Part shown: one piece after another, positions 23,840 to 62,590 of the stretch
Position numbering within the stretch: position 1 is the stretch's first letter
How the letters are laid out: each line of letters opens with the position of its first letter
IMG/VR virus record: IMGVR_UViG_3300049198_000021
Coordinates: 32,001 to 96,000 of that record
Reading direction: 5' to 3' (one strand)
Length of the DNA stretch: 64,000 nt
From: a virus
Lineage: Duplodnaviria > Caudoviricetes
Translations under genes and position numbers: made by a program
The notes under the pieces: model-generated
The model's input: the letters and a program-made list of their open reading frames with translations, nothing else
Told to the model about the DNA's origin: nothing
Databases searched by the model: none

Positions 23840-23841
23840 GG

Positions 23842-32645: not shown

Positions 32646-32672
32646 GGCTGTCTCCTGTTGCTGTGTCAGAAT

Positions 32673-39667: not shown

Positions 39668-40058
39668 TACGCGGCGCGTGACCCCTCCCGGAGGCCCCTT
39701 CCGCGCCGGTCCCGGTAAGGTTAACGGCCCATTAACCTTTCTCCACCAGTAAGGTTAACGAAATCGGTCAATTTGTTAAGGTTAACAGCGCGTTAAGGTT
39801 AACAAACCCCTAATTTACTGCTCGTTAACCTTAACGAATATGGTTAACGGGCCATTAACCATGTTTGTTAACGTTAACGACTCGTTAAGGTTAATATGCG
39901 GAGCGATTTCGTTAAGGTTAACAGATTCGGGGCATCCGTTAACGTTAACGAGGTCTCCCCTCCCCGTTAACCATTGATCTGGAAAAAGTGCTTGACCGAA
40001 TCGGTTGCTTCTGCGACTCAGGATGCACGGCGAATCACCGCCGCTTGGAGACGACCTA

Positions 40059-40304
40059 ATGCCTTTGAAACCCGCCGCCGCTCTCAGCAAGGATAAGCTG
40101 GGCGCAAGCCACCCCGCCGCCCTCCAGCACCGGCACTTCGCCGTCATCGCTGGAATCCTCGCCAACCTCGACCGGGACAGCCTCGGCTTGACGCAAGGGC
40201 AGCACCTCAACATCTGCCAAGACTTCGCGTCCGAACTCTCCGGAACAAACCCGAAATTCGACGAGCGTCGATTCATGGTCGCTTGCGGGTTCGCGGCCCC
40301 CTGA
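40059..40304 (+). CDS. cassette gene, hypothetical
   Basis: GGAGA RBS; HF..IA...NPKFDERRFMVAC. Confidence 0.75.
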   Translation: MPLKPAAALSKDKLGASHPAALQHRHFAVIAGILANLDRDSLGLTQGQHLNICQDFASELSGTNPKFDERRFMVACGFAAP

Positions 40305-40402
40305 TGGGGTGTCTCGACGCTATCGCCCGGTTCTTTCTGGGCGTCTTTCTGTTGATCCTTGCAACTGGGCTGGCCGCGTGCCAGCCCCTTTTCTTACGGT
40401 AA
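40304..40402 (+). CDS. 32-aa lipobox micro-peptide
   Basis: MGCLDAIARFFLGVFLLILATGLAACQPLFLR; TGATG coupling; two paralogues. Confidence 0.55.
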   Translation: MGCLDAIARFFLGVFLLILATGLAACQPLFLR

Positions 40403-40568
40403 CCAGCCGTTAAGGTTAACGCGGCGGGTAATTCGTTAAGGTTAACGCGGCGGGGTAATTCGTTAAGGTTAACGCGCCGGTTGAAATCGTTAACCATCAA
40501 AGTGGAAAAGTGCTTGACCGAATCGGTTGGACCACCTAGACCCGAATCACCAACAACGGAGACAGACC
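40399..40568 (+). promoter_or_regulatory. representative cassette promoter: GTAA-N7-TTAA, TTAACCAT, A-tract, TTGACC-N17-TAGACC, two GANTC, RBS
   Basis: Direct reading; 17-bp spacer GAATCGGTTGGACCACC. Confidence 0.85.
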
Positions 40569-40820
40569 ATGAAACTGCAAGAAATTAGCACCACCGAGGT
40601 GGATGAATCGTGCCTCGACGACGACGGGAAGGTTCCTTACATCGCCTTGCATTGTGCAGCGACGGAAGCTGACGCGGCGTTCGTTATCGCACAAACGACC
40701 GACGGCTACGACGGACGCAGCGATTGGCGCTGGATTCGCCTCCCGAACGGCGATCTGATCCTTGGCGTGTTCCCGCAAGGCGACACCTATCTGCAATTCG
40801 CCGACACCATTGGCATTTAA
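40569..40820 (+). CDS. cassette gene, acidic hypothetical
   Basis: Module RBS. Confidence 0.75.
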   Translation: MKLQEISTTEVDESCLDDDGKVPYIALHCAATEADAAFVIAQTTDGYDGRSDWRWIRLPNGDLILGVFPQGDTYLQFADTIGI

Positions 40821-40834
40821 GGGGAGGCAAGTAA

Positions 40835-41203
40835 ATGAACCGCTATTTTTACGACCCGGCGACCGCCTCGTGGGGCTCGGCTGACGACCTCGAAATCTTC
40901 GAACTCGACGACCAGAACATGGACGCCGACGAAATCGAACAGGCGCTGTGCGACGCCTCGCACGTCGGGGCCGGGCTCGGCCTGAAATACCTGCTCGACC
41001 GCCGGGCCAAGAATGAGCCCTACCGCCGGGAGAACATCGGGATTCGCGCCGTGAAGGACAACGGCAAGACCGAATGGGAAGTGGTGGAGGACGACGCCGA
41101 CGCCGACGCCTTCGAACTTTACCGGCATGACACCGGGACGCTTGTCGAAGTTTGCGCCACCCGCGAAGACGCTACCGAATACTGGGAAGCGATCACCACC
41201 TAA
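40835..41203 (+). CDS. cassette gene, acidic hypothetical
   Basis: GGAGG RBS. Confidence 0.75.
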   Translation: MNRYFYDPATASWGSADDLEIFELDDQNMDADEIEQALCDASHVGAGLGLKYLLDRRAKNEPYRRENIGIRAVKDNGKTEWEVVEDDADADAFELYRHDTGTLVEVCATREDATEYWEAITT

Positions 41204-41208
41204 GGATT

Positions 41209-41234
41209 GGCGGGCTTCGGCCCGCCTTTCTTTT
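41209..41234 (+). terminator. intrinsic terminator (representative; similar hairpins close most cassettes)
   Basis: GGCGGGC-TTCG-GCCCGCC followed by TTTCTTTT. Confidence 0.85.
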
Positions 41235-41464
41235 ACCGGTAACTATTCGTTAAGGTTAACAGATTGGCTTTAGACGTTAACCATTAAAGTGGAAAAATTA
41301 GTCGAAATAGTGCTTGACCGAATCAGCGAATCATCCTAGACCAAATATCGGAATGACCCCTCCGGCGGGCCGCTCGATGACGGGGCGGATGGGGAGGAGG
41401 CGATGGGATAATCCGAAAGGATGAAGCCCACGTTAGCCCGCCAAATTGTAACAGGAGACAGACC

Positions 41465-41842
41465 ATGCAAACCATCTGGCAATTCGAAACCAAGAACTTC
41501 ACCGTCCGAATGTCTTGCGACTACGATCAGGACACCACAGACCTTTCGTGGGATGACACCGGCGAAGTCGCTGAAAAGCTGGCAAGCGGTGAATGGGCCT
41601 GCTATACCTTCCACGCCGAAGTTATCGAAAACTCCACCGTTAACACCATCGGGGAAGACTACCTCGGCGGTTCTATCTATGCCAACCCGGAAGACTTCCG
41701 GGACCATGTGGGGCTCGCAATCAAGAGCCGCGAAGATGGGCGCAACTATGGCAGCTACTTCACGGACATGATCCGCGAAGCGATCCGCGAGGCTCGCAAG
41801 ACCTACGCCGAACAGCGCCCGCGCCTTCGCGTTCCAGCCTAA
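41465..41842 (+). CDS. cassette gene, hypothetical
   Basis: Module RBS. Confidence 0.8.
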   Translation: MQTIWQFETKNFTVRMSCDYDQDTTDLSWDDTGEVAEKLASGEWACYTFHAEVIENSTVNTIGEDYLGGSIYANPEDFRDHVGLAIKSREDGRNYGSYFTDMIREAIREARKTYAEQRPRLRVPA

Positions 41843-42023
41843 GGGAGAGGGGCCTAGCGCCCCTCTTTCTTCGCCGGTAACTATTCGTTAAGGTTAACGC
41901 ATCGGGGTAATTCGTTAACCATCAAAGTGGAAAAAGTGCTTGACCGAATCACTTGAGACACCTAGAAACGAATCAGCAATGCAGGGAGCGACTCGCACCG
42001 GGCAGCTACAACGGAGATAGGCC

Positions 42024-42413
42024 ATGCCGCAAATTTTGATCGAATACACGAAGACGGAAGTCACCCGCGAACGGGTGTGGATCGAAGCCGACTCGCCCGC
42101 TGAGGCGTTGCGGGTTGTCGAGGAATATGAATTTGACAATTCGGACGCCTACGAAGTCGATTCGCTGCGCTGGGAAATCAGCGATGCTTCTGTGCATGAG
42201 GTGGAGCCCGTGGAAGTGGAAGTGCTTGTGCGCCTCCCCGTCGCCATCACATGCGAGCGCGACAACGTGGAGACCGTGGTCCACCGCGTGGCGACCGTCG
42301 CCGAAGCCGAAGAGTGGATTGCCGTGGGTCTTGCCGACGGGTTCCTTGACGAAGACGACGTGGAACAGGGCACCTACGGAATCGATGCCCCTGAGGAGAT
42401 GATAAACCCATGA
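42024..42413 (+). CDS. cassette gene, very acidic
   Basis: Module RBS. Confidence 0.75.
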   Translation: MPQILIEYTKTEVTRERVWIEADSPAEALRVVEEYEFDNSDAYEVDSLRWEISDASVHEVEPVEVEVLVRLPVAITCERDNVETVVHRVATVAEAEEWIAVGLADGFLDEDDVEQGTYGIDAPEEMINP

Positions 42414-42670
42414 CCATCATGCGCCCATTCGTGAACATAAACGGCACCAGCCGGGCCGCTCTTGTCGATCAGCGCCGCGCCGCGATGGAAGCCGTCCGGC
42501 TTGCCATGACGGCCCTGCAAGAGACCTGCCCGCATGGCCGCGACTACATCGGCGATCCGGCCCGCTTCGACCATGACCGGGGCGTCTATAACCGGCGGTT
42601 CGCCAAGCTGGACGAATTGCACAACGACTTGCTGGACGAAGCGTTAGCGATTCAGAATGGAGGGGCTTAG
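42410..42670 (+). CDS. cassette gene, hypothetical
   Basis: ATGA coupling; NGTS...PHGRDY. Confidence 0.75.
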   Translation: MTIMRPFVNINGTSRAALVDQRRAAMEAVRLAMTALQETCPHGRDYIGDPARFDHDRGVYNRRFAKLDELHNDLLDEALAIQNGGA

Positions 42671-42804
42671 GCCCCTCTATTTTTACCAGTAACTCGGCGT
42701 TAAGGTTAACACCACAGAGATCGGCCTTAACCATTAAAGTGGAAAAAGTGTTTGACCGAATCGCTTGTTTGTCATAGAACGAATCATCACAACGGAGACA
42801 GACC

Positions 42805-43134
42805 ATGAAAGACTTGCTTGACCGCTGCCTCGCCCGTCCGGGTAAAAACTTCGGAGCGGGCTATGGCTTCGCCCTCGCCTATCTGGACGACAAGATGAAC
42901 CCCGCTCACTTGCGGGACGCCGCTTGTCACATGGTCGGCAAGGCATACGGTCCCCACGGCTGGGCCGCTGCCCGTAAGAGCCCTGATCTGGCGTCATTCG
43001 TGCTGGCATACAGCGAAGCGGAATGCTTCGAAGACTTCGCAATCGAAGCGGCACAACTGCTGCTGGAATGGGGAATGCGTGGCGATCCGGACGCCGCCGC
43101 CGCGCTTCGCCTTTGCGGCCATCCGGGTTATTGA
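42805..43134 (+). CDS. cassette gene, hypothetical
   Basis: Module RBS. Confidence 0.75.
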   Translation: MKDLLDRCLARPGKNFGAGYGFALAYLDDKMNPAHLRDAACHMVGKAYGPHGWAAARKSPDLASFVLAYSEAECFEDFAIEAAQLLLEWGMRGDPDAAAALRLCGHPGY

Positions 43135-43281
43135 GGGAGGGGCTTCGGCCCCTTTCTTTTTATTCCTAACACATCGTTAAGGTTAACGCGCCGCCATTCT
43201 CCGTTAACCACTGGGATGGAGAAAGTGCTTGCTCGAATCACTTGATTGGTCTAGGGTGAAACTATCAAGAGGAGATTGCCC

Positions 43282-43515
43282 ATGAAAAACTTGCTCAAGG
43301 AATACCACCAAGCTGCTGACAGGGAAATCCAACGCTGGCCCGGCGTTGCGATTATCGAACGCAGGATCGGCAAACACGCCCGGCTGAGTCTGGAGTTTCA
43401 GGGCCGCAGGCGCTTTGTGATTCACCCGGCCTCACCCAGCGACGTTCGGGGAGTCCATCGCCACGTTCAGGATATTAAGCGCGTCCTGACTGAATTAGGT
43501 GCGAACCGGGTCTAA
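43282..43515 (+). CDS. cassette gene, possible HicA-like fold
   Basis: GKHARL...SPSDVRG...IKR pattern; AGGAG RBS. Confidence 0.5.
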   Translation: MKNLLKEYHQAADREIQRWPGVAIIERRIGKHARLSLEFQGRRRFVIHPASPSDVRGVHRHVQDIKRVLTELGANRV

Positions 43516-43597
43516 AAATAAGTGGAAAAAGTGATTGACCGAATCACTCTAACCGCCTAGACACGAATCACCGCAATCAAGCGGACGGAGACAGACT

Positions 43598-43954
43598 ATG
43601 AAAAACCTCGAAACCCGTATGAATAAGGGCCGGGACGGCTGGCAGGCAAAGACGGAAATCCCTCTCGAAGGGATCAGCATCACGGACGGCGACAAGGTGA
43701 AGCCGGCGATCCTGACGATCAGCACCCGCAAGCATTCGCGTGGCGGCCTCTCCACCGGTTGCAGCGTCGCCTTCCGCGACGGTAACTTCATGACGCACCG
43801 CGTCTATACCGACTTCAACGTCGCCTATACCCGCGACCCGAACGCTCGCTGCACCGAAAAGGCAATCGAGCGGATGCACTCCGAGGCGCTGGCGGACATT
43901 GCCACGATCGAATCAGCGGTTCGCGACCACTACGCCGCGCTCGAAGCGGAATAA
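43598..43954 (+). CDS. cassette gene (paralogue of 44115-44510)
   Basis: W.A.T..PL...ST.K.SRG.L...R.TEK.....H.E.L. Confidence 0.8.
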   Translation: MKNLETRMNKGRDGWQAKTEIPLEGISITDGDKVKPAILTISTRKHSRGGLSTGCSVAFRDGNFMTHRVYTDFNVAYTRDPNARCTEKAIERMHSEALADIATIESAVRDHYAALEAE

Positions 43955-44114
43955 GGGAAGGCGGGGAAACCCGCCTTTTCTTTTGCCCTTAGCCCGGTGT
44001 TAACCTTAACAAATCGGCCGCATTCGTTAACCATCAAAGTGGAAAAAGTGCTTGACCGAATCGCTTGTTCAACCTAGACACGAATCACCGCAATCAAGCG
44101 GACGGAGACAGACT

Positions 44115-44510
44115 ATGAACGAGACCACCGTCAAAAAAGACCACTGGGGTAAGTGGATTGCTGAAACCCGCACCCCGCTTCCCGGCATTCGCAGCATGAG
44201 CGCCACGAACAACGAAGAGCGCAACGAACCCGCCGCCTTGCTTGTCAGCACCTACAAGGACTCGCGTGGCGATCTGGTCAGCAACGCAATCGTGATCTTC
44301 ATCACGGACAGCGGCCACCGCACCGCAATCGGCGGCCCGACCGGCGACTACAGCCGCACCATCCGCCGCGAACGCGGCGCACGCGTCACCGAGAAGAAGC
44401 TTCGCAGCTATCACGCCGAATCGCTCGGCTATATCCCGCAGGTCGTCGCTGATCTGGCGAACCACTACAATCAGGGCGACCCGCTCGCCGAACGGGCGAA
44501 GGCGGCCTAA
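44115..44510 (+). CDS. cassette gene (paralogue of 43598-43954)
   Basis: Same motifs; identical leader. Confidence 0.8.
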   Translation: MNETTVKKDHWGKWIAETRTPLPGIRSMSATNNEERNEPAALLVSTYKDSRGDLVSNAIVIFITDSGHRTAIGGPTGDYSRTIRRERGARVTEKKLRSYHAESLGYIPQVVADLANHYNQGDPLAERAKAA

Positions 44511-44674
44511 AAAGACTGGCGGGCTCCGGCCCGCCTTTCTTTTGCCGGTAACCAACCGTTAAGGTTAACGCGACGAGATAATTAGTTAACCATTAAAGTG
44601 GAAAAAGTGCTTGACCGAATCAGCGAGTCACCTTATCAACGAATCACCGCAATCAAGCGGACGGAGACAAGACC

Positions 44675-45025
44675 ATGTGCAACATCGGCGGGCAGATTGG
44701 CCCCTTCATGTATAACCCGGCCTGCAAGCCGGTTGAACGCAAGGTCGGCAAGGTGACGTTCCTTGTCGGCATCGCGACCGCCTACAACGCGTTCGGCCTG
44801 ATTGGCACCGAACACAACGGCATCTTCATTCTCGACGACACGAACATGACCGTCGTCATGGACCGTCACAGCGAAGGCTCGGCTGGTGGCTTCGGCCCCT
44901 ACGGCTCGCAAGTCGCTGAGCGTGACCGCCTGCTCGCCCTGAGCGACGCGGACTTCCTCGCCTTCATTCGCAGCAACCCCCGCTTCCGTGGTGTGGACCT
45001 ACCGAACGTGGGGAAGGCCGCATGA
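44675..45025 (+). CDS. cassette gene, hypothetical
   Basis: Module RBS. Confidence 0.75.
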   Translation: MCNIGGQIGPFMYNPACKPVERKVGKVTFLVGIATAYNAFGLIGTEHNGIFILDDTNMTVVMDRHSEGSAGGFGPYGSQVAERDRLLALSDADFLAFIRSNPRFRGVDLPNVGKAA

Positions 45026-45324
45026 TCGACCGGGACAAGTTTCTCGCCATGCTCGACACACTGGAGTGTCGCGGCCTCATCAACGCACCAACAGCCTATT
45101 CAGGACGGGGAATGTATGGAAAGCGTTGCATCGCCCTGACTGGGGATTCGGTCAGCGAATGGGGCCTCGCAATCCAAATGGCGGCCATTGCCGACGAATA
45201 CGACGTGACGCCCTACGACCTGCCTGAGCCCTCGACCGATTCGATGGGACGGGGCATCGTCCTCTATTGGCGGGGCCTCGAATGGCCGGAAGACCGCCGC
45301 GATCCGGACGAAGACGAATACTAA
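45022..45324 (+). CDS. cassette gene, hypothetical
   Basis: YSGRGMYGKRC...DSMGRG; ATGA coupling. Confidence 0.75.
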   Translation: MIDRDKFLAMLDTLECRGLINAPTAYSGRGMYGKRCIALTGDSVSEWGLAIQMAAIADEYDVTPYDLPEPSTDSMGRGIVLYWRGLEWPEDRRDPDEDEY

Positions 45325-45474
45325 GGGAAGGCGGGGCAACCCGCCTTTTCTTTTGCCCTTAGCCCGGTGTTAACCTTAACAAATCGGATCAAGTAGTTAA
45401 CCATCAAAGTGGAAAAAGTGCTTGACCGAATCGCTTGTGCAACCTAGAACCGAATCACCAACAGGAGACAGACC

Positions 45475-45783
45475 ATGCGAATCAGTCACATTGAAATGAC
45501 CATCACCCTCGAAGACGGCCAGACCGTGCAGGGCCTTATCAGCCCGGAAGGCGAATCGCGCTGGGGCAATGACATTCCCCACCTCGCCGCCGCCGTGATA
45601 CCCATGGAAGCCATGGCCGCCGCCTTGCAGGAAAACGACGCGTGGGAACGCGAAGAAGAAGACGAAGACGAATACCACGGCGAATGCGGCCAGTGCGAAG
45701 GCACCGGCACAATCGAAGGCGGGCTTGGCGGTGATGGGGACGACGAAGAATGCCCTGTCTGTGACGGAAGCGGGGAACTCTGA
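45475..45783 (+). CDS. acidic protein with DnaJ-type CxxCxGxG zinc finger
   Basis: CGQCEGTG...CPVCDGSG. Confidence 0.75.
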   Translation: MRISHIEMTITLEDGQTVQGLISPEGESRWGNDIPHLAAAVIPMEAMAAALQENDAWEREEEDEDEYHGECGQCEGTGTIEGGLGGDGDDEECPVCDGSGEL

Positions 45784-46025
45784 TGCACAAGACCCCGCCC
45801 GCAATCGACACCAGCGTTACCGTCCAACTCTGGACGCCCGGCGGCTTGATTGTCAGCATCCCCGCCGGGTTCATTACGTCCGATCCCGTCCGGGCTTCGC
45901 TCGACAAGCGGACGCAAGAAGGCGACACACACGCGGCAATCACCATGGCCCGGCACACCGGCCTAGACGTAACCATCCGCCGGGAAACCCAGACCACCGT
46001 TCGCGCCTCCGATCTGGAGGCGTGA
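45783..46025 (+). CDS. cassette gene, hypothetical
   Basis: TGATG coupling. Confidence 0.6.
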   Translation: MHKTPPAIDTSVTVQLWTPGGLIVSIPAGFITSDPVRASLDKRTQEGDTHAAITMARHTGLDVTIRRETQTTVRASDLEA

Positions 46026-46151
46026 GCGCCCGTTTACCAGCCGTTAACCTTAACAAATTGAACTAACTTGTTAACCGCTGATCTGGAAAAAGTGCTTGAC
46101 CAAATGCAACGGCTCGCCTAGAAACGAATCAGTTGAAACGGAGACAAGACC

Positions 46152-46709
46152 ATGTTTGATGCACTCGACCAGAAGACTTTCATCCTTTGCGGGCTCGCAA
46201 TCGAAGCGGCGGCGGATGACGACGAATCAATCGACAAGCGCGACCCGTCAAAGCTGGAATATCAGCGCGGCTCCGAAGTCACCGGGGTGGCATGGCTGAG
46301 CGGCTATGACTCACGGGGTGACGCCCCGCCTTGCCTGCAAAAGGTGATCGACTCGCACTATGACGCGCAAAACGCCGAATGGAAGCGGCAATATCCGGAC
46401 CGCCCCGATCTGCACCTTTGCGTGGATTATGCCGACGCCCTCCCCTACGCTGGGGAAGCTGAGGAATGGCTGGACGCCGTGCTGAGCGGCCCGGACGGGC
46501 GCGGGGAAGCCGCCTATCTGCAAATCGAAGTCACTTTCGACGACGATACGGTTCAATGGTGGGCGCGCTTTACCGATGAAATCAACGCCCCGCTATCCGA
46601 AGGCGGGCGCGGCGAAATGGACGCCGAAGCGTTCCTTGCGCTGGACGACGACGCGCTGGAAACGCTCGCAAAGGAGATTGCCGAGTCGGCTTATGACTAC
46701 GGCGCTTGA
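46152..46709 (+). CDS. cassette gene, acidic
   Basis: Module RBS. Confidence 0.8.
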   Translation: MFDALDQKTFILCGLAIEAAADDDESIDKRDPSKLEYQRGSEVTGVAWLSGYDSRGDAPPCLQKVIDSHYDAQNAEWKRQYPDRPDLHLCVDYADALPYAGEAEEWLDAVLSGPDGRGEAAYLQIEVTFDDDTVQWWARFTDEINAPLSEGGRGEMDAEAFLALDDDALETLAKEIAESAYDYGA

Positions 46710-46850
46710 AGACTGGCGGGCTCCGGCCCGCCTTTCTTTTGCCGGTAACCAGCCGTTAACCTTAACAAGTCGTTACCACTAGGTGGAAAAAGTGATTGAC
46801 CGAATCGGTTGTGTCTCCTAGAAACGAATCAGTTGAAACGGAGACCGACC

Positions 46851-47147
46851 ATGAGCATCACATACCACACCACCCTGCCCGCTTGGGAACACGGTGAACT
46901 CGATGAAAGAGGCTGCCTACGCCCGACGAAAGGTAAGCTGATCTGGAGCAATACCAACCCGCCTCCGGCGATTGGCGACCGCGTTCGCATCCGCGTCAAC
47001 GGCATCGGCATGGCGACCGTGGAGTCCTACTTCGAACAGGAAGGCTATCTCGGCATCCTGACGACCGTTGACGCTTGGCCGACGTTCTTCGCCAAGCAGA
47101 ACGGCGAGGACCGCTCCTGCCACGCGTTCGGCGCTGAAATCGCTTAA
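46851..47147 (+). CDS. cassette gene, hypothetical
   Basis: Module RBS. Confidence 0.75.
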   Translation: MSITYHTTLPAWEHGELDERGCLRPTKGKLIWSNTNPPPAIGDRVRIRVNGIGMATVESYFEQEGYLGILTTVDAWPTFFAKQNGEDRSCHAFGAEIA

Positions 47148-47309
47148 AGACTGGCGGGCTCCGGCCCGCCTTTCTTTTGCCGGTAACCAGCCGTTAACCT
47201 TAACAAATCGGCCTAAGTTGTTAACCATCAAAGTGGAAAAACTACTTGACCGAATCGGCTGGAACGCATAGAAACGAATCACCGCAATCAAGCGGTTGGA
47301 GACCTGACC

Positions 47310-47732
47310 ATGCCTAAGTGGCAATACACCGGCGATATGTCGCTTGAATATGGCGGCTTCTACTGGAAAGACGAGGGTGATCCCGAGTCGGTGGAAGCCC
47401 TCAAGGTCACCCCTTGCAGCGACGCGGGCGGCCCCGACAACCTGTTCCACGTCGAATCGGGAACGGTCTACATGAACCCCGAACGCCTCGAATCGGCACT
47501 GGATGTCATCGGGCTCACGCCTGAAACGGCAAGCCGGGATGATGTGATCTACGCGTTCCAAGCCTATTCAGGACTGGACCGGGACGCCTACGGCGGCGAG
47601 CGGGTGATTCGCATCGGTCCGGATGAATCCGACTACATGCGCCGGTCCGGCGGGTGGAACCCGGAACCCGACGTAATCCTGCGCGCTGGGACCGATCTTC
47701 GCAAGTGGATTGAACGCAACTGGCTGGATTAG
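47310..47732 (+). CDS. cassette gene, hypothetical
   Basis: Module RBS. Confidence 0.8.
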   Translation: MPKWQYTGDMSLEYGGFYWKDEGDPESVEALKVTPCSDAGGPDNLFHVESGTVYMNPERLESALDVIGLTPETASRDDVIYAFQAYSGLDRDAYGGERVIRIGPDESDYMRRSGGWNPEPDVILRAGTDLRKWIERNWLD

Positions 47733-52996: not shown

Positions 52997-53007
52997 GGGG
53001 CTCGACC

Positions 53008-54336: not shown

Positions 54337-54621
54337 ATGCCCAAACTATACAACGCGGACATCAGCATCACCGCGACCGCATACGTGATCGCTGAGAACG
54401 AAGACGAAGCACGGGAAAAGATCAGCGCCCTTCAAGGCAGCTACATCGAATTTTCCGACCGCAGCCAGCAAGTGGCAGACGACCTGTTCGTGACCGGCGA
54501 AACCTATGGCCCTGACATGCCGGAACTGTCGCTGAGCCCTGCCATGACCATCAATCACAGCGCGACGCGCCCCTACGTTTGTCTGGTCGAAGAACTGGGC
54601 GAAGAAGAGGAAGAAGCCTGA
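54337..54621 (+). CDS. cassette gene, acidic
   Basis: Module RBS. Confidence 0.75.
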   Translation: MPKLYNADISITATAYVIAENEDEAREKISALQGSYIEFSDRSQQVADDLFVTGETYGPDMPELSLSPAMTINHSATRPYVCLVEELGEEEEEA

Positions 54622-54893
54622 TGCACGAATCCAATCAAGCCCGGATCGACTGGGCAAAGAACGCCCTCGATACCTTCACCATCGAAACCTACGGCGGACG
54701 GCCTTATTCGACACTTGAAGCGCAATGCGCTGATTGCGAAGAAGGCGACGGGGACGACTACACAGCCGTGCAAGACCTTATCGGCGATTTGCTCCATGTG
54801 GCCCACGAACGGGGCTGGAACACCGCTGAGATCATTCGGCGGGCGGAAGCAAACTTCGTCTATGAAGCTGCGCCAGATTATCAAGGCGACTAA
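54621..54893 (+). CDS. cassette gene, helical (DLIGDLLH motif)
   Basis: TGATG coupling. Confidence 0.7.
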   Translation: MHESNQARIDWAKNALDTFTIETYGGRPYSTLEAQCADCEEGDGDDYTAVQDLIGDLLHVAHERGWNTAEIIRRAEANFVYEAAPDYQGD

Positions 54894-55249
54894 ACCGGGA
54901 GGGGCTTCGGCCCCTCTTTGGATCGCATTCATTTTGGATCGCCACCGCTTTGGACCGGGCCGATTTTGGATCGGGCCGGTTTTGGTTTTGGACCGTTTCG
55001 ATTTTCATGATCGCCGCCATTTTGAAGGCAGCGCGACCGGGCCGAATCAGTTGATCAAGCGTTAACCAAACCGACCGGAACCGATGGTTAACAAAACTGA
55101 TCATTCTGTTAAGGTTAACGAAATCGTGGAAATCGTTAACAAATATGGTTAACAAAATACCCCTATTTGTTAACCATCAAAATGGAAAAAGTGCTTGACC
55201 GAATCAGCGAATCGCCCTAGAAACGAATCACCAACAACGGAGACAGACC

Positions 55250-55576
55250 ATGCTTTCACTGGATCAATACACTGGCCGCCACGAAGCCGCCGCCGTTCGC
55301 CGCCTGATCGGGCACGCCCTCGCACAAGACTGGACGGTGAGCGTCAATGACGGGGAAGAATGGACCGTCAAGAAATCCCGCGACAGCGACGAAATTCTGG
55401 CGGCGCTCGCCACAACCGGCGAAGACACCCTGAAATTCCGCGACCCGGAAGGCAAGGCCGTCGGGACTATGTATCTGGTTTATCAGGGCGGCGACAACCC
55501 CGGCGACGAAGTTGTTTGCGACTACAGCGACAACGAATCGATGGATTATCTCTACCGCCGGACATTCCCGGCTTGA
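55250..55576 (+). CDS. cassette gene, hypothetical
   Basis: Module RBS. Confidence 0.8.
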   Translation: MLSLDQYTGRHEAAAVRRLIGHALAQDWTVSVNDGEEWTVKKSRDSDEILAALATTGEDTLKFRDPEGKAVGTMYLVYQGGDNPGDEVVCDYSDNESMDYLYRRTFPA

Positions 55577-55751
55577 CAACGGGCGGGGAGGGAAAACCCT
55601 CCCCGTTGCCGATTCGTTCCATGGTTAACGGAATCGGAGGATTTGTTAAGGTTAACGAATGGGTTAAAGTTGTTAACCATCAAAGTGGAAATAGTGCTTG
55701 ACCGAATCGCCTATGCCGACTAGAAACGAATCAGTTGAAACGGAGACAGCA

Positions 55752-55904
55752 ATGGCGAAAAACTGGGAAGCGTTCTTTGCAGCGATGAGCGATTCCGATC
55801 TACTATCGGCACAGCTTACTTGGGGCCGTGAGGGGGAGGACAGCGAAAACTTGGAAGCTTGGGCTGCCGTGAATCAGGAAGTTTTCGAACGGGGTTTGGA
55901 GTAG
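55752..55904 (+). CDS. cassette gene, 50-aa acidic
   Basis: Module RBS. Confidence 0.65.
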   Translation: MAKNWEAFFAAMSDSDLLSAQLTWGREGEDSENLEAWAAVNQEVFERGLE

Positions 55905-55930
55905 GGGCTGCGGCCCCTCTCTTTCTGCTC

Positions 55931-55945
55931 TTAACCCGGCGTTAA
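55931..55945. promoter_or_regulatory. perfect CtrA box TTAA-N7-TTAA (others at 39721, 39782, 39844, 39874, 56326, 58875, 60875)
   Basis: TTAA-CCCGGCG-TTAA matches the established alphaproteobacterial CtrA consensus. Confidence 0.7.
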
Positions 55946-56059
55946 GGTTAACGTAATGAGGTAAATCGTTAACCATAGAAGTGGAAATTAAATGGAAAAA
56001 GTGCTTGACCGAATCAGCGAATCACCTTAGACCGGGATCACCAACAACGGAGACGACCG

Positions 56060-56293
56060 ATGGAACTCGCTGAATACTTCACTTGCCCGGACCGCCCGAC
56101 CTTCCTGCAATTCGGCAAGCTGGTGAATGCCCGCCTCGAATCGCGCTGCGGCCTCGGCATCCTCGACTTGCCGGATCAGGATTATTCCAGCCTTCACGAA
56201 GACTGGGACGGGACCGTCCAGCACGCCTGTGACATCGCAGACGAAATCCTCGAAGAAGAAGGCTTCGGGATGGATGAAGATTACGACTTTTGA
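56060..56293 (+). CDS. cassette gene, very acidic
   Basis: Module RBS. Confidence 0.75.
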   Translation: MELAEYFTCPDRPTFLQFGKLVNARLESRCGLGILDLPDQDYSSLHEDWDGTVQHACDIADEILEEEGFGMDEDYDF

Positions 56294-56460
56294 GAGAAGG
56301 GGCTTCGGCCCCTTTTCTTTTGCCCTTAACTCCGCGTTAAGGTTAACAGATCGGACCACTTTGTTAACCATTAAAATGCAAGCAAGTGGAAAAAGTGCTT
56401 GCACGAATCAGTGGCCTAGGGCAAACGAATCAGGCGACACAGAGCCGCCGGAGACGACCT

Positions 56461-56760
56461 ATGACAACCCTGAGCATCAAGACCGCCCGCCCCGCCGCCA
56501 CCATCCGCGCCGAGCGCATCGCCTACGATCGCATCCCCGCGACGCCCGCCGAGCGCGCCACCGCCCTCGCCCTCCTGATCGACGGGGACGCATGGACCCT
56601 CGCCGAATACGTCGCGTGGATCAACCGCGACGCCGCCACCTTCGCCCTCATGGGTGCGGCTGAGTGGGCCGAGCGCGGCATCACCACCGCTTCCGCCCTT
56701 GGCGACCTTCTGGACGCCGAGAATGAGCGCAACCTGAGAAAAGAGGCCATGTATGGCTAA
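56461..56760 (+). CDS. cassette gene, hypothetical
   Basis: Module RBS. Confidence 0.75.
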   Translation: MTTLSIKTARPAATIRAERIAYDRIPATPAERATALALLIDGDAWTLAEYVAWINRDAATFALMGAAEWAERGITTASALGDLLDAENERNLRKEAMYG

Positions 56761-57157
56761 GAAACTAGCCGCCGCTTATGCGGCTGTCACCGAGGCACAC
56801 AAAGCCCACGAAGACGCCCTAAACGCCGCTGAGGCCGCTTTGACGGATCATGTGGAGCAAATGCTAACCGAACTCGCCAAGCGGTTCCCGCGCCGACGCT
56901 TCTACGCCTCATCAGGGATGGGAAGCCTTTCTATCGAAGTCTATCCCGGACCTAAGCCGCGTTACGCACACCACCCGCGCCAGCCTTACAAATGGTTCTG
57001 GGGCGGAATGTGGGGACCGGATAACACTTGGCGATTCCTGTGGCAGGATTGGGAAGACCTGCTCGATTCGTTCATCAAAGAGACCGGGCAGACCGCTAAC
57101 GATTACGTCAACTTCACCCGTGAACTTGACGTGAGGGGCACACGCTACAAGGATTAA
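56753..57157 (+). CDS. cassette gene, hypothetical
   Basis: GAGG RBS, overlap. Confidence 0.7.
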   Translation: MAKKLAAAYAAVTEAHKAHEDALNAAEAALTDHVEQMLTELAKRFPRRRFYASSGMGSLSIEVYPGPKPRYAHHPRQPYKWFWGGMWGPDNTWRFLWQDWEDLLDSFIKETGQTANDYVNFTRELDVRGTRYKD

Positions 57158-57292
57158 GGGAAGGGCGGACCGCCGCCCTTTTCCTTGTTAGTGGTTCGTT
57201 AAGGTTAACCAATCCTGCCACTTGAGTGGAAAAAGTGCTTGACCGAATCAGTGGAGCCGCCTAGACCGGGCTGACCAACACGGAGATTTTCT

Positions 57293-57544
57293 ATGACCTC
57301 GATTCGCGACCTCGCCCACGCCCGCCACCTCGTCGCCACCGGCGAAGCCGCCGCTCGCATGGCCCGCACCTCGCAGCAGGCCGAAAACCTGCGGATCGCG
57401 TTCGTGGAGCGCTGGGAGGCGCTTGGCGACCTCACCACCTGCGCCGCCATTGATGAAGGCAAATGGCTTGACAGCCAAATCAAGGAACTGGATTGCGACT
57501 GGGGCGACCCTGTATCGCCTGAATGCGAATGGCACCTGCACTAA
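57293..57544 (+). CDS. cassette gene, hypothetical
   Basis: Module RBS. Confidence 0.7.
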   Translation: MTSIRDLAHARHLVATGEAAARMARTSQQAENLRIAFVERWEALGDLTTCAAIDEGKWLDSQIKELDCDWGDPVSPECEWHLH

Positions 57545-57711
57545 GGGCGCGGGCTTCGGCCCGCCTCTTGGCTGGTAACGGTTTGTTAAGGTTAACGCCC
57601 GACCGGAATTTGTTAACCATCAAAATGGAAAGTAAGTGGAAAATTGCTTGACCGAATCGGCTTAGACTGGCACTAACGAATCACCGCAATCAAGCGGACG
57701 GAGACAAGACT

Positions 57712-57798
57712 ATGAGCCGACACCAGAAACGCCGCCTTGCCGCCAAGCGTGCGCGCATCGCCATTCTTTCCTCGTGGATCGCAAAGGGCCGCCGCTAA
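57712..57798 (+). CDS. 28-aa basic peptide
   Basis: MSRHQKRRLAAKRARIAILSSWIAKGRR after module RBS; TAATG coupling. Confidence 0.6.
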   Translation: MSRHQKRRLAAKRARIAILSSWIAKGRR

Positions 57799-58064
57799 TG
57801 GCTGGCTTCTGGGATCGCGTGGACACCCTCGAAATGGTGGAACTCTACGCCGAGGACAACGGGCAGATTGCCAGCGAAGAGGAGCTTTCCAAGCGCTTTG
57901 ACGCCGAAATCCTTCCGCTCGTGCTGGAGCAATACAGCGAGTCCGATACGGTCGCAATCAATGAGGCTTTCAACGATTGGACCGATTCGCTCTGCAAGGA
58001 CGGCGAAATCCACCCGGATCAATACGATTCTTACTGCTACGTTGGGAGGCTGGCAGACGACTAA
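57798..58064 (+). CDS. cassette gene, very acidic
   Basis: EAFNDWTDSLCKDG motif. Confidence 0.75.
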   Translation: MAGFWDRVDTLEMVELYAEDNGQIASEEELSKRFDAEILPLVLEQYSESDTVAINEAFNDWTDSLCKDGEIHPDQYDSYCYVGRLADD

Positions 58065-58173
58065 GGCGAGGGGCTTCGGCCCCTCACCAAACTTTTTTCG
58101 TAATTAGTGGAAAAAGTGCTTGACCGAATCAGTTGGCTCGCCTAGAAACGAATCAACAGCAACGGAGGCAGTC

Positions 58174-58326
58174 ATGCAGATCAACACTTACCACGTTTAC
58201 ATCAACAACACCTTTTCCGGGATCATCTCGGCGGTGTCTTACCGGCAGGCTCTCAAGCGCGCCAAGGCAAAGCATCGCGGCCCGGTTGACGTGATCGGGT
58301 TCGTCTCCGCAAAGGCGAAGGTTTAA
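58174..58326 (+). CDS. cassette gene, small basic
   Basis: GGAGG RBS; resembles the N-terminus of 63030-63302. Confidence 0.65.
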   Translation: MQINTYHVYINNTFSGIISAVSYRQALKRAKAKHRGPVDVIGFVSAKAKV

Positions 58327-58488
58327 GGGGAGGGGCTTCGGCCCCTCTTTCTTTTTGCCTGTTACGATCTGTTAACCTTAACAAATATGGTTAACAAATT
58401 AACGTTTGGCGTTAACCATTAAAGTGGAAAAAGTGCTTGACCGAAGCAGTGACTCGTGTGAAAACGAATCATCAATCGGAGACAGATC

Positions 58489-58668
58489 ATGAAGAATCGC
58501 AACACCCTTGACGCCCGTTACAGCATCCGCCTCGAATGGTGCGGACACGCCACGCAACAATGGGTCGCCCGCTTCTGTGGTGATTGGCTGGGCTGCGATG
58601 CAACCCGCTCGGGCGCTGAGGAAATCGCCCGGCTTTATGAGCGCGACCGCTGGGCGGTGGCGGCATGA
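58489..58668 (+). CDS. cassette gene (59 aa)
   Basis: Own translation MKNRNTLDARYSIRLEWCG... Confidence 0.7.
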   Translation: MKNRNTLDARYSIRLEWCGHATQQWVARFCGDWLGCDATRSGAEEIARLYERDRWAVAA

Positions 58669-58841
58669 AACCGAAACACCCTTGCAGCGTAAAGCGCGAC
58701 GCAATTTTTCTGGCCGCTGTAAAGCATCCCTTCACCCGGTGGAACGAACACACAGGCGAACAACAAGCCAGATTTATCAAGCAGGCCACGCATATCCGGG
58801 AGCATCTGCGGGATTACGAACCGGGAGCATTCATCGACTAG
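58665..58841 (+). CDS. cassette gene (58 aa)
   Basis: ATGA coupling; followed by terminator. Confidence 0.55.
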   Translation: MKPKHPCSVKRDAIFLAAVKHPFTRWNEHTGEQQARFIKQATHIREHLRDYEPGAFID

Positions 58842-58990
58842 CAAGAGGCGGGAGCGATCCCGCCTTTCGCATTGTTAACCCAGTGTTAAGGTTAACATAT
58901 TGGTCTAAGTTGTTAACCATCAAAGTGGAAAAAGTGATTGACCGAATCAGCAAATCGGCCTAGACCCGAATCATCAACCGGAGACAGATC

Positions 58991-59119
58991 ATGCAAAACA
59001 TCCGCAAGAACCCCATCGCCGCCTCGCTCGCCAGCGCCCACCTCGTCCCTCGCAAGGTTCGCGCTCGCAAGGGCAAGGGCTCTTTCCGCCGCAACCCGAA
59101 ACACCGGGGCGCGGCGTGA
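58991..59119 (+). CDS. ArfA-like (alternative ribosome-rescue factor A) peptide, 42 aa
   Basis: MQNIRKNPIAASLASAHLVPRKVRARKGKGSFRRNPKHRGAA; KGKGS(Y/F)xRxxKH signature; module RBS; missing from ORF track. Confidence 0.7.
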   Translation: MQNIRKNPIAASLASAHLVPRKVRARKGKGSFRRNPKHRGAA

Positions 59120-59460
59120 GCGACCGCATCCGCCCCGTGGTTTTCGACTCGGCCCAGATCGAGCCCTTTGCCGCTCGCATCATCGGCATAGCCGCTTCGC
59201 AATTCTGTCGCCTCAAGGAGCGCGAGAAAGAGACCGGAGAGAAGTCGGACCCCTTCGACATGGAAGACGCTCTGATGCACCTCTGGTGGGCTCTCAAGGG
59301 GCTTGACCACATCGCAATAGCGTTGCGCGGCGGCAGGGATTGCGACGACCCGTCTGGCGTTCATTTTTCCATGGTGATGAACGCAGAACACGCCCGGATT
59401 CGCCGCCTTATCATGGAAGAACTCGGAGTCGATCCCGGATCACACCCGCGCTGGAAATGA
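59116..59460 (+). CDS. cassette gene, hypothetical
   Basis: GTGA coupling. Confidence 0.65.
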   Translation: MSDRIRPVVFDSAQIEPFAARIIGIAASQFCRLKEREKETGEKSDPFDMEDALMHLWWALKGLDHIAIALRGGRDCDDPSGVHFSMVMNAEHARIRRLIMEELGVDPGSHPRWK

Positions 59461-59613
59461 GGGGCTTCGGCCCCTCTTTCTTTTCTGGTAACCGTTCGTT
59501 AACCTTAATAAACGGCCCGAAATCGTTAACCATCAAAGTGGAAAAAGTGCTTGACCGAATCAGCGAATCGGCCCATACCCGAATCACCGCAACCAAGCGG
59601 ACGGAGACAGTCA

Positions 59614-59904
59614 ATGCAGACCAACGATCCCAGCGCCGTCACCCACCACAACGGAGGCACCACCTTCACCGGCGACGCCATCCACCTCTACCGCGCCGTG
59701 ACCCTCAAGGGCGCTCTCAAGCTGCACCGCGATTGCGGCATGATCCCGACTCGCGGCATGACCATCACAAAGATGTTCGCCATCGCCCAGCAGATCACCG
59801 GCAAGAAGTATAAGCGCGGCGGCCATGATGCGGCCATCACCGACCTGACCGCGTGGATCGAAGCCGCCAAGGCATCCATGCCGATCATCGACGAGCGGAC
59901 CTGA
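59614..59904 (+). CDS. cassette gene, hypothetical
   Basis: Module RBS; ITGKKYKRG. Confidence 0.75.
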   Translation: MQTNDPSAVTHHNGGTTFTGDAIHLYRAVTLKGALKLHRDCGMIPTRGMTITKMFAIAQQITGKKYKRGGHDAAITDLTAWIEAAKASMPIIDERT

Positions 59905-60132
59905 AAGGAGATTGGTTAACGGGGAAGCCCTCCCCGTTAACCATATTTCCGGCTGGTAACCAGTCGTTAAGGTTAACAGCGCCGCAGCATTCCTTAACCA
60001 TCAAAGTGGAAAGTAAGTGGAAAAAGTGGTTGCACGAATCAGCGAATCGGTCTAGACCCGAATCACCGGGCGGCACCTACTGACTGGCAGAGCAGCGGCA
60101 AGGCTCGCCCGGTAAACAACAGGAGACAGACC

Positions 60133-60294
60133 ATGTTCGAAGTGATCACTACGCTCCGCACCTTCTATGTGCAGGCTGACACTTTCAACCTCGCCGTCCT
60201 CTCGGCTTATCAATTCATTCTGGACGACGAATCGATCCTCGGCATCAAGACCGACGGACCTGCAACGTTCATCATCGTGGAGATCGCAGCATGA
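60133..60294 (+). CDS. cassette gene (53 aa)
   Basis: Own translation MFEVITTLRTFYV... Confidence 0.65.
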   Translation: MFEVITTLRTFYVQADTFNLAVLSAYQFILDDESILGIKTDGPATFIIVEIAA

Positions 60295-60509
60295 TCAGCA
60301 AGAAAGACGCAATCGCCAAGGCAATCGCGGCTGGAGCCTCGCAAGAGGAAATCGACCGCCAAGCCGCAAACTACGTCCGCCAAGTGGGCAGCGTGCCTTT
60401 CAACAACATGATTCGCGCCCTTAACCTAGGCCCGTGGCTCAACACGGTTGACGACTGGACCCCGCTGGCAGCAGCCCTGACCGCGAGGGGATTGGCGCGA
60501 AAGCGCTAA
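60291..60509 (+). CDS. cassette gene, hypothetical
   Basis: ATGA coupling. Confidence 0.7.
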   Translation: MISKKDAIAKAIAAGASQEEIDRQAANYVRQVGSVPFNNMIRALNLGPWLNTVDDWTPLAAALTARGLARKR

Positions 60510-60629
60510 TTCCTTAACGGAATAGGGGAATTTGTTAAGGTTAACCCGAATTAAGAATAAAGTGGAAAAAGTGCTTGACCGAATCGGTTAACCATCCTAG
60601 AAACGAATCAACAGCAACGGAGACACACC

Positions 60630-60842
60630 ATGAAGATCAAGATCAAGACCACCGCCCGCTACACCGCCAAGCGCAAGGCTGCTATCATCGCCGACGTGGA
60701 CAACGGCACTACCACCCTCGAAGAGGTTTGCAGCCTGCACAACATCACAAGCGAAGAGTTCGACGGCTGGCGCAAGTCGCTGGACCGCTCGGGACAGCAG
60801 GGGCTTCGGATCACCCGGCTGCAACACTACCGGGCAGCATAA
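60630..60842 (+). CDS. sciP: SciP-like CtrA inhibitory protein (DUF1153)
   Basis: RYTAKRKAAII..V.NG...LEEVC....ITSEEF..W...LDR.G..GLRITRLQHYR aligns gaplessly with recalled SciP RWVxRRKAEVV..V.GG...LEEAC....LTxEEF..W...IDRHG..GLRxTRxQxYR. Confidence 0.85.
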   Translation: MKIKIKTTARYTAKRKAAIIADVDNGTTTLEEVCSLHNITSEEFDGWRKSLDRSGQQGLRITRLQHYRAA

Positions 60843-60972
60843 GGGAAGGGGCTTCGGCTCTTTTTCTTTTGCCTTTAACCCAGTGTTAAGGTTAACAAGT
60901 CAACTGAATTAGTTAACTAATTAGCTGGAAAAAGTGCTTGACCGAATCAGCGAATCGGCCTAGACCCAAGCC

Positions 60973-61140
60973 ATGGAAATGACCCTTTCAGAAATCCGCC
61001 ACAAGCGTGACCGGGCAATCGTTCAGCGCCGACTCGGCGAGGAACGCCGCCGCCACGTTAACCAATGCGTCGCCGACATCATCGCACAAGGAAAGATGGA
61101 AGAGCGCCGCCAGACCACCCGACGGGAGGAAGACCAATGA
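60973..61140 (+). CDS. cassette gene (55 aa), possibly leaderless
   Basis: ATG 6 nt after the TAGACC -10 hexamer; no RBS. Confidence 0.5.
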   Translation: MEMTLSEIRHKRDRAIVQRRLGEERRRHVNQCVADIIAQGKMEERRQTTRREEDQ

Positions 61141-61337
61141 CAGACCGCCGATTCGTAATTGTCGAAAACGCCGGATATGAAGGCGAGCAAGACATCACCC
61201 ACTTTCTCACCTTGCGGGAGGCATTCGCCTATCAGCGCGGCCATTATGAGCCGGACGAGATCGAAGAATTGCACGTCGATATTCGCCAAGACTGGACGGA
61301 CGAAAACGGCGATTTTCATCAGGAATATGTCTATTAG
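61137..61337 (+). CDS. cassette gene, acidic
   Basis: GGAGG RBS; ATGA coupling. Confidence 0.7.
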   Translation: MTDRRFVIVENAGYEGEQDITHFLTLREAFAYQRGHYEPDEIEELHVDIRQDWTDENGDFHQEYVY

Positions 61338-61404
61338 GTGGAAAAAGTGCTTGACCGAATCGGTGGCCTATGCGAAAACGAATCATCGAAACGGAGACAA
61401 GCAA

Positions 61405-61599
61405 ATGACCACCATCCTGATCCTCGCCGCCGCCGCCCTGATCTTCGCCACCGTGGCATTTTTCAAGGCCCGCGCCGAACTCGCCGCTCACGCCGCCGAA
61501 CAGGCAAGCAAGCATATCCCCAACCCCACCATCTACAGCGGCCCGCGCTTCACCGCACATGGCCGGGAAATCCAACAGACCGGACGGCGGATCATCTGA
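61405..61599 (+). CDS. cassette gene, single-TM protein
   Basis: MTTILILAAAALIFATVAFF. Confidence 0.7.
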   Translation: MTTILILAAAALIFATVAFFKARAELAAHAAEQASKHIPNPTIYSGPRFTAHGREIQQTGRRII

Positions 61600-61755
61600 G
61601 AAAGGGGCGGGAGAAATCCCGCCCTTTTCTTTGGCCGGTAACCGGGTGTTAAGGTTAATAAAACGGTGAAATTCGTTAATCATCAAAGTGGAAAAAGTGC
61701 TTGACCGAATCGGTTGGCGAGTTTAGACCCGAATCATTGGAAACGGAGACAGACC

Positions 61756-61953
61756 ATGAGCAAGCCCACCGAACAAGCAATCGCCGCCGACCTCGACCTT
61801 TGCGACATGATCCTTGCATTCGGAACGCCCGCCGCCAAGCGAAAGGCCCGCGCCCACCGCAAGGCTTGTTTCGCAGAAATCGCCCGGATGAACGCCGAGG
61901 CCGGGACTGACAAACTGAGCGATGATGAATTGCTCGCTGAATTGATGGCCTGA
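61756..61953 (+). CDS. cassette gene, hypothetical
   Basis: Module RBS; LSDDELLAEL tail. Confidence 0.75.
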   Translation: MSKPTEQAIAADLDLCDMILAFGTPAAKRKARAHRKACFAEIARMNAEAGTDKLSDDELLAELMA

Positions 61954-62141
61954 TAGGAACCGGCCCCTGACAACAGGGGCCGGGACCCTAATTCACTGAG
62001 AACAAGGGCCGGGCTCTAAAATCGTAAATTCAGGTTAACCTTAACAGATCGGTCGAAATCGTTAACTATTAAAGTGGAAAAAGTGCTTGACCGAATCGTT
62101 TGGCGCGTTTAGACCCGAATCATTGAAAACGGAGACAGACC

Positions 62142-62417
62142 ATGGAAAGATTCGAACTGACGGGCTCGGGCATCAGCGACGGGCAGAATCCGGAAAAACT
62201 GCTTGCTGCCGCGAAAAAGTGCGGCCTTCGGAATCCCCGACTCGCCTATCACTACGGCTGGTCCAATCAGCCGAAAACGATTCGTTTCAGCGCCGAAAAC
62301 TGGGAAGCTGCCGATAAGGTCGCCGATCTGGTGCGAACCGAGTTTTACCCGGAAAACGCCGAGGGCCGTTTGTGCCCGATGATTCGGGCCTATCCGGTAA
62401 AAGCCCCAGAAGCCTGA
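62142..62417 (+). CDS. cassette gene, hypothetical
   Basis: Module RBS. Confidence 0.75.
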   Translation: MERFELTGSGISDGQNPEKLLAAAKKCGLRNPRLAYHYGWSNQPKTIRFSAENWEAADKVADLVRTEFYPENAEGRLCPMIRAYPVKAPEA

Positions 62418-62590
62418 TCCCGGAAAAGCCCGATTCGCCGAATCGGGCTTTTTCCTTTTTCGGTAACCCTGCGTTAACCTTAATAAAACGGCGAAAATCG
62501 TTAACCCTAAAAATCGGCCTTTCTGGAAAAAGTGCTTGACCGAATCGGCCTTTTCTGGAAAAACCGGACCACCGCAAAGGGAGAAAAGAC

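Follow-up and report, generated by a model that had tools for sequence, protein, structure and literature searches.

Dozens of promoters in a phage of Erythrobacter-type bacteria carry boxes matching the GcrA word and may be host sigma70 promoters tuned for GcrA

Why would a long series of phage promoters carry the word CGAATC at fixed places around their −35 and −10 elements? The question is raised by a window of 64,000 nucleotides (nt), bases 32001 to 96000 of a 176.5-kb virus record rated complete (IMG/VR IMGVR_UViG_3300049198_000021; Duplodnaviria, Caudoviricetes), which contains a large array of small genes, each behind its own promoter. A sequence-only reading of the array had seen CGAATC directly after the −35, often again in the spacer and near +1, two to three sites per promoter, had matched the word to the motif of the host cofactor GcrA, and had proposed that methylation of these sites by CcrM switches the early genes on. 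Analysis confirms the observation and extends it beyond the array, to a second promoter class and to related phages. Comparison with GcrA promoters suggests that the boxes may be GcrA sites, whereas the methylation switch appears doubtful.

A profile search (nhmmer) seeded with 21 exact copies of the promoter returned about 42 matches between positions 39965 and 62489, exclusively on the plus strand, and four weak ones in the rest of the genome. Anchoring on the −35 element defined 40 promoters, here called class 1, with −35 TTG triplets at 39992 to 62536 and the plus-strand orientation throughout (Table 1). The class-1 consensus (n = 40) is GTTAACCATCAAA-GTGGAAAAAGTGC-TTGACC-GAATCR-N11-CC-TAGAAA-CGAATCA, in which an A-tract is followed by CTTGAC, a 17-bp spacer and a CTAGAA-type −10 element (CTTGAC-N17-CTAGAM), then by a short leader, a small open reading frame (ORF) and a terminator. 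In most units a GGAGACAGACC-type ribosome site and the small ORF lie about 16 to 32 nt past the predicted start, usually with an intrinsic terminator behind them. The −10 hexamers (TAGAAA, TAGACC and CAGAAA) lack the final T, as the sequence-only reading had stated, and it is solely for this missing base that a scanner built on the Escherichia coli consensus overlooks these promoters. A −10 without the final T is ordinary for alphaproteobacterial sigma70 promoters (Caulobacter GCTANAWC) and is not a special defect, although the promoters of the structural-gene arms described below keep the T more often than those that bear boxes.

The boxes occupy defined positions within this architecture. 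GANTC is found at +6 from the TTG in 36 of the 40 class-1 promoters, always as CGAATC (box 1, about −27), at +14 in eight (the middle box, the GAATCAGCGAATC form of the earlier reading, about −19), at +28 to +30 in 31 (box 3, about −3) and at +23 in three. Two boxes are present in 29 promoters, three in six and one in five. The earlier description was correct throughout. Where a promoter has more than one box, these form direct repeats with spacings of 8, 16 or 24 bp, and 23 CGAATC pairs in the window are spaced by exactly 24 bp. The window contains 152 copies of CGAATC (68 ± 9 in shuffled sequences), whereas GANTC as a whole is slightly depleted (293 observed, 355 ± 18 in shuffles). Its density reaches 36 per kb in the promoter cores, compared with 3 to 4.6 per kb elsewhere; fixed 55-bp cores were used for this ratio, and a greedy ORF map, unreliable inside the array, was discarded. 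The match to the GcrA motif YGAKTCG also stands, as 79 of the 81 class-1 heptamers conform to it on one strand, and it is backed further by position, orientation and conservation. The commonest heptamer, CGAATCA, accounts for 56 sites and, read on the other strand, is the GcrA consensus TGATTCG.

A second class of promoters, collected with nhmmer from a four-copy seed, comprises 17 minus-strand promoters with boxes, all outside the region of the earlier reading, with ten in the window and seven to its left. The consensus is TTGACG-N16-CCTAYC-YGATTCG-CATCAACAA-CGAATCR-GGAGACAG, with the core TTGACG-N17-TAYCYG, and both class 1 and class 2 possess a sigma70-type core (−35 TTGAC, a spacer of about 17 bp and −10 TAnnnn). 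All 17 class-2 promoters have at least one box, found at +14 from the TTG in 8, at +28 to +31 in 11 and at +44 to +48 in 8, which places the box centres at about −19, −4 and +11. At +28 to +31 the word reads YGATTCG on the coding strand and is thus inverted with respect to class 1. Several promoters of the transfer RNA (tRNA) region also bear boxes. Separately from the boxes, a palindrome overlapping the −10, (C)TAGGA-AGATTTG-TCCTA(C/T), is found in class-2 spacers but not in class 1; it looks like a candidate operator for a dimeric regulator.

The structural-gene arms use a third class of about ten promoters, CACCGMCATTTTGGC-TTGACA-N17-TAnnnn, and GANTC is present in none of these. The CACCGMCATTTTGGC element lies directly 5′ of TTGACA and, in some promoters, inside the spacer after it, and class 3 is possibly a late class with its own activator. 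Because class-3 promoters are without GANTC while those of classes 1 and 2 bear boxes, the boxes are specific to promoter class.

Table 1. Coordinates of the promoters and associated features (window positions unless another sequence is named)
Feature	Position	Strand	Details
Class-1 array, 40 near-identical promoter-leader-ORF-terminator units	39992..62571	+	Profile search and −35 anchoring
Class-1 −35 TTG starts, units 1-14	39992, 40514, 41314, 41940, 42752, 43229, 43535, 44052, 44611, 45422, 46096, 46796, 47246, 47814	+	
Class-1 −35 TTG starts, units 15-28	48454, 49106, 50293, 50949, 51582, 52220, 52800, 53744, 54275, 55195, 55698, 56005, 56399, 57239	+	
Class-1 −35 TTG starts, units 29-40	57648, 58120, 58437, 58938, 59551, 60030, 60575, 60938, 61351, 61701, 62087, 62536	+	
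Typical two-box promoter	41940..41975	+	−35 TTGACC 41940-41945; box 1 CGAATCA 41945-41951; −10 TAGAAA 41963-41968; box 3 CGAATCA 41969-41975, its final A being the predicted start
Three-box promoter	55195..55230	+	CGAATC at 55200, 55208 and 55224
Inverted box-3 heptamer TGATTCG in otherwise normal class-1 promoters of uncultured relatives	L025:2498, L025:3077, L045:96, L045:912, L045:3662, L054:1663		
Ten class-2 promoters in the window	2676..32701	−	−35 TTG at 2725, 3994, 7867, 10972, 14386, 19297, 24873, 26642, 28333, 32701; each extends about 50 nt leftward
Three-box class-2 promoter	26593..26642	−	TTGACG, spacer box GATTC, CCTAAC, CGATTCG, 9 nt, CGAATCA, then GGAGACAG
Class-2 spacer palindrome	10925-10972, 28285-28333, others	−	
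Class-3 promoters, outside the window (G000:C1 coordinates)	~101146-101200, 108678, 116428, 121941, 125970	+	
Class-3 promoters, outside the window (G000:C1 coordinates)	146980, 153346, 157152, 160019	−	
Intrinsic terminator closing a cassette (example)	47153..47170	+	GGCGGGCTCCGGCCCGCC and T run; identical copies at 44518 and 46715
Leader hairpin CCGC-AATCAA-GCGG	43570-43597, 44087-44114, 44646-44674, 47281-47309, 57683-57711, 59586-59613		Directly after the predicted start
TTAAC half-site elements	39965-62500		About 25-45 nt 5′ of most class-1 −35s
SciP-family (DUF1153) helix-turn-helix protein, 70 amino acids, predicted class-1 cassette product	60630..60842	+	Pfam PF06627, E = 3.5e-20
Large terminase gene	36754..38487	+	TerL 91% identical to XM05 TerL; marks the array start

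One account of such a repeated word is that it has no function and was spread by duplication of the cassettes. All copies are clearly homologous and the conservation of the whole cassette is high. Since the 40 class-1 copies are paralogous, raw counts overstate their independence, and selection is therefore better judged by comparing orthologues. The paralogues approach maximal information content in the A-tract, the −35 and the boxes and have almost none in the spacer. Class-1 promoters also occur in the nearest named relatives, the cultured Erythrobacter phages XM05 (at least 31) and vB_EliS-L02 (hereafter L02; at least 25), and some 15 contigs of uncultured phages from IMG/VR have several each. 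The comparison with XM05 covers ten orthologous promoter pairs with a mean protein identity of 63%; identity is 90 to 100% for the −35 and box 1, 70 to 90% for box 3 and 20 to 70% for the spacer. Mere copying would not explain why adjacent spacer columns have diverged in paralogues and orthologues alike while the boxes have not, nor why the same word stands in the non-homologous context of class 2.

The boxes also vary in ways that leave the word intact. In L02, box 1 is displaced by 1 bp (TTGACGAATCA, centre at −28), with the register of box 3 unchanged. At the place of box 3, six of the 231 unique promoters, relatives included, read TGATTCG, the inverted heptamer, and these inverted copies disfavor a role of box 3 at the RNA level, as leader or initiator. 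Furthermore, a box elsewhere in the promoter (+14, +23 or +40) is found in 23 of the 38 promoters without box 3 but in only 31 of the 193 with it (Fisher test, 5e-8, relatedness uncorrected), so that lost boxes are replaced elsewhere. The boxes thus appear to behave as separable modules that can move by 1 bp, turn around and stand in for one another. Taken with the information content of the paralogues, the conservation in relatives and the identity of the orthologues, this behavior argues for selection acting on the boxes beyond mere copying, and functionless hitch-hiking seems to us most improbable.

A composite promoter scan of 185k bacterial genomes gave scattered single matches at chance level and one four-copy contig of 3.7 kb. 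That contig, CAZFQW010000441.1 (L095; 3756 bp, from the bin of a Roseobacteraceae metagenome-assembled genome [MAG]), has four class-1 promoters and most likely represents phage DNA that was wrongly assigned to a bacterial genome bin. On these grounds the class-1 promoter is specific to phages and not copied from a host locus.

The reading that we favor, to which we give about an even chance, is that the class-1 and class-2 promoters are of the host sigma70 type and adapted to the holoenzyme loaded with GcrA, with the boxes serving as GcrA sites. Host sigma70 RNA polymerase would recognize the phage promoters, to each of which one to three GcrA words would have been added; GcrA tethered to the polymerase would dock on a box, raise promoter occupancy and help opening where the −10, without its final T, is weak. 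The boxes would thereby give priority to the first two gene sets, that is, about 57 promoters and a few in the tRNA region, and the structural genes would be served by class-3 promoters, which lack boxes and have another element upstream. The presence of more than one box in a promoter may offset incomplete methylation.

GcrA is a cofactor of Alphaproteobacteria that recognizes YGAKTCG methylated by CcrM. It is a monomer in which a linker of about 60 residues joins the DNA-binding domain to the domain bound at sigma70 region 2 (PMC9976885). The 1-bp shift in L02, the inverted boxes in relatives and in class 2, and the replacement of a lost box 3 point to positional freedom, single-copy sufficiency and orientation independence, which would be expected of such a tethered monomer more than of a rigid operator. 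In Caulobacter, the GcrA word is TGATTCG, or more broadly YGAKTCK, with sites close to −20 and between +2 and +30 and hardly any around the −10 (Haakonsen et al., PMC4647560); Wu et al. add the range −30 ± 2 and find a single box at most host GcrA promoters (PMC9976885). With start sites placed from the −10, two phage boxes fall inside these ranges, namely the middle box at −19 (range −20 ± 1) and the downstream box of class 2 at +11. In the scaffold sequences of the same study (PMC9976885), the box of PcsM (CGAATCC, non-template strand) starts at offset 13 from the TTG and that of PmipZ farther downstream is centered at offset 47. In the phage, the corresponding values are 14 for the start of the middle box, which is on the same strand as that of PcsM, and 46 for the center of the class-2 downstream box. 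The Caulobacter crescentus GcrA promoters (PcsM, box at −20; PmipZ, boxes at +4 and +12; PMC4647560, PMC5887438, PMC9976885) resemble those of the phage in their sigma70-type core, the YGAKTCG word, the use of spacer and downstream boxes and of both orientations, with two positions agreeing within 1 bp. They differ in being chromosomal and usually single-box, whereas the putative GcrA promoters of the phage number about 57 near-identical copies with dominant boxes at −27 and −3.

Several observations weigh against the GcrA reading. Box 1, centered at −27 (−28 in L02), is at the edge of the reported −30 ± 2 and in the window phage lies 1 bp outside it, and box 3, at about −3, falls in the zone that Haakonsen et al. 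found nearly empty of GcrA sites. Most phage promoters have two or three boxes, in contrast to the single box of most host GcrA promoters, and all the start sites from which these positions are counted derive from the −10 alone. The boxes are not uniquely conserved, as the 13-mer GTGGAAAAAGTGC adjoining the −35 equals them in invariance. In the Caulobacter phage phiCbK, whose host is the organism that defines GcrA, positions 1 to 30000 contain no repeated box promoters, with GANTC at 1.6 per kb. That the host has gcrA and ccrM is predicted from the literature on Sphingomonadales. Finally, for a phage without a methylase of its own, virion methylation depends on a host enzyme that Caulobacter possesses only at a late cell-cycle stage.

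Such a dependence is what the gene content predicts. Six-frame searches of the phage found no GcrA, no methylase of the CcrM (N6_N4) or Dam type, no sigma70 region 2 and no alpha-subunit C-terminal domain (alpha-CTD), and those of XM05, L02 and three IMG/VR relatives found neither GcrA nor a CcrM-type methylase. The host would thus have to supply everything: promoter recognition, cofactor and methyl mark. Orthologues of gcrA and ccrM have been located in Sphingomonadales genomes, all of whose ctrA promoters bear GANTC (PMC8116508). A class-level sample centered on the Roseobacteraceae MAG gave 0 GcrA matches in 151, a result implausible for Alphaproteobacteria and hence uninformative, not a sign of absence.

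The heptamer might instead be read by another protein, whether an early or virion protein of the phage or a host factor, acting as an activator or as a repressor for early shut-off. Room for such a protein exists in the array: a Pfam search of 20 of its ORFs (region 40059-62746) left 19 without a known family, the SciP/DUF1153 protein being the sole exception. The class-2 inverted repeat YGATTCG-N9-CGAATCR would suit a dimer, and the noncanonical commonest positions and the lack of boxes in phiCbK point the same way. However, the promoters that fire first cannot await an activator made by the phage, the class-1 direct repeats of 8, 16 and 24 bp with their single boxes, 1-bp shifts and flips are unlike a rigid oligomeric operator, and the word coincides exactly with the GcrA optimum as published. 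To our knowledge, and with no search run, CGAATCR matches none of the consensus sequences for sigma54, extracytoplasmic function (ECF)/EcfG sigma factors, CtrA, LexA, DnaA or IHF. We regard a different binder as fairly unlikely.

It may also be that no reader is needed, and that the boxes act through direct contacts with sigma70 or polymerase, as an extended −35 and a discriminator, or through N6-methyladenine just 5′ of the start that eases melting. The two regions concerned are touched by polymerase, box 1 lying against the −35 and box 3 taking up the discriminator, and the Caulobacter −35 consensus itself extends to TTGACGS. Strand-specific contacts are nonetheless opposed by the shifted box 1 of L02 and by the inverted box 3 of the relatives and class 2; −19 and +11 are not contact points of polymerase, and class-3 promoters do without boxes. 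This explanation is in our view distinctly unlikely. Sigma appropriation of the T4 MotA/AsiA type, in which a box for a phage-encoded activator takes over from the −35 and the phage also makes an anti-sigma factor, was considered and rejected, as the −35 is intact and near consensus with the box beside it, and no sigma-related phage protein was found (MotA and AsiA were not searched for specifically).

As an extension and special case of the GcrA reading, the sequence-only reading had proposed an epigenetic timer: methylated infecting DNA would be on, and once replication outruns host CcrM, the unmethylated box promoters would turn off. The SciP-like protein of the phage might reinforce the shut-off by damping CtrA-dependent ccrM expression. 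The timer is in keeping with boxes that are CcrM sites with the best GcrA flanks, with the lack of a phage methylase and of boxes in the structural-gene arms, with the SciP-family gene in the array, and with the strong effect of methylation on GcrA-dependent transcription in Caulobacter (PMC4647560). Against it, packaged DNA is itself newly replicated, so that progeny would need late re-methylation by the host before packaging, and a phage SciP that lowers ccrM would oppose this late burst. In addition, class-2 and tRNA-region promoters bear the same boxes, and the switch would not be confined to early genes. We consider the timer unlikely. A replication-coupled program built from host parts, in which class-1 and class-2 promoters would fire on methylated DNA and fade, box-less class 3 would take over, phage SciP would damp host ccrM and multiple boxes would tune the sensitivity to partial methylation, is as a whole likewise improbable.

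Partial parallels to such promoters exist in other phages and in bacteria. T4 early promoters, T5 and the A1 to A3 promoters of T7 are tandem strong promoters for host polymerase, with A-rich upstream elements and small early genes of unknown function at one genome end. From what is generally known of them, these arrays rely on near-consensus −10 elements and UP elements, whereas the present promoters combine a −10 that is weak by E. coli standards with a cofactor word. In Mu mom, P1 cre and IS10, an adenine-methylation site inside the promoter couples expression to the replication state. The known Dam-sensitive promoters use GATC and not GANTC, and methylation there usually either prevents or allows the action of a repressor at one promoter, in contrast to a polymerase cofactor at dozens of promoters as proposed here; agn43/OxyR and traJ/Lrp are cited as cases of this kind (PMC4647560). 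A further comparison is with phiCbK-type phages, prolate siphoviruses that are related to the window phage, share its gene order and likewise seem to be linked to the host GcrA circuit. The link differs in kind, as phiCbK acts in trans through the GcrA homologue gp222 (PMC3556154), whereas the clade of the window phage has no GcrA and carries sites in cis.

L02 has been classed as a CbK-like prolate siphovirus (PMC9127768). The predicted host clade of the window phage is alphaproteobacterial, of Erythrobacter type, XM05 and L02 sharing its class-1 promoters. In the annotated neighborhoods, the order of terminase, about 40 small genes and portal is common to the window phage, XM05 and phiCbK. 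The first 10.3 kb of the terminase-to-portal stretch of phiCbK is a terminal repeat at the physical genome end; this synteny fits the array being an early region, a timing deduced from position. The array could not be placed at a physical genome end by way of an IMG/VR record with direct terminal repeats (G154), in which it lies mid-contig, as assembly repeats give no physical ends.

The array has further features of its own. The 13-mer GTGGAAAAAGTGC resembles an UP element. Farther upstream, GTTAACC, GTTAAGGTTAAC and GTTAACCTTAAC elements, which contain TTAAC half-sites in both orientations, precede most class-1 −35s. In several leaders the predicted start is directly followed by the hairpin CCGC-AATCAA-GCGG, which may act as a 5′ stabilizer. 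The ribosome site GGAGACAGACC, an unusual one, is common to nearly all ORFs of the array.

Full-text literature searches combining GcrA with phage, early promoters and GANTC retrieved no description of GcrA boxes in phage promoters, and such promoters are mentioned in neither the report on phiCbK nor that on L02. The known role of GcrA is that of a chromosomal cofactor of the cell cycle; if the GcrA reading is true, viruses exploit it, together with the host methylation mark, in cis at about 60 promoters. With one to three boxes at four positions and in both orientations, the phage promoters would then make up a natural, highly repeated set of variants, useful for dissecting how a tethered monomeric activator works at −27 and −3. 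XM05 and vB_EliS-L02, which have the same promoters, are cultured alongside their Erythrobacter hosts, and the idea is thus directly testable. If it holds, the success of infection would be tied to the cell-cycle or methylation state of abundant marine bacteria.

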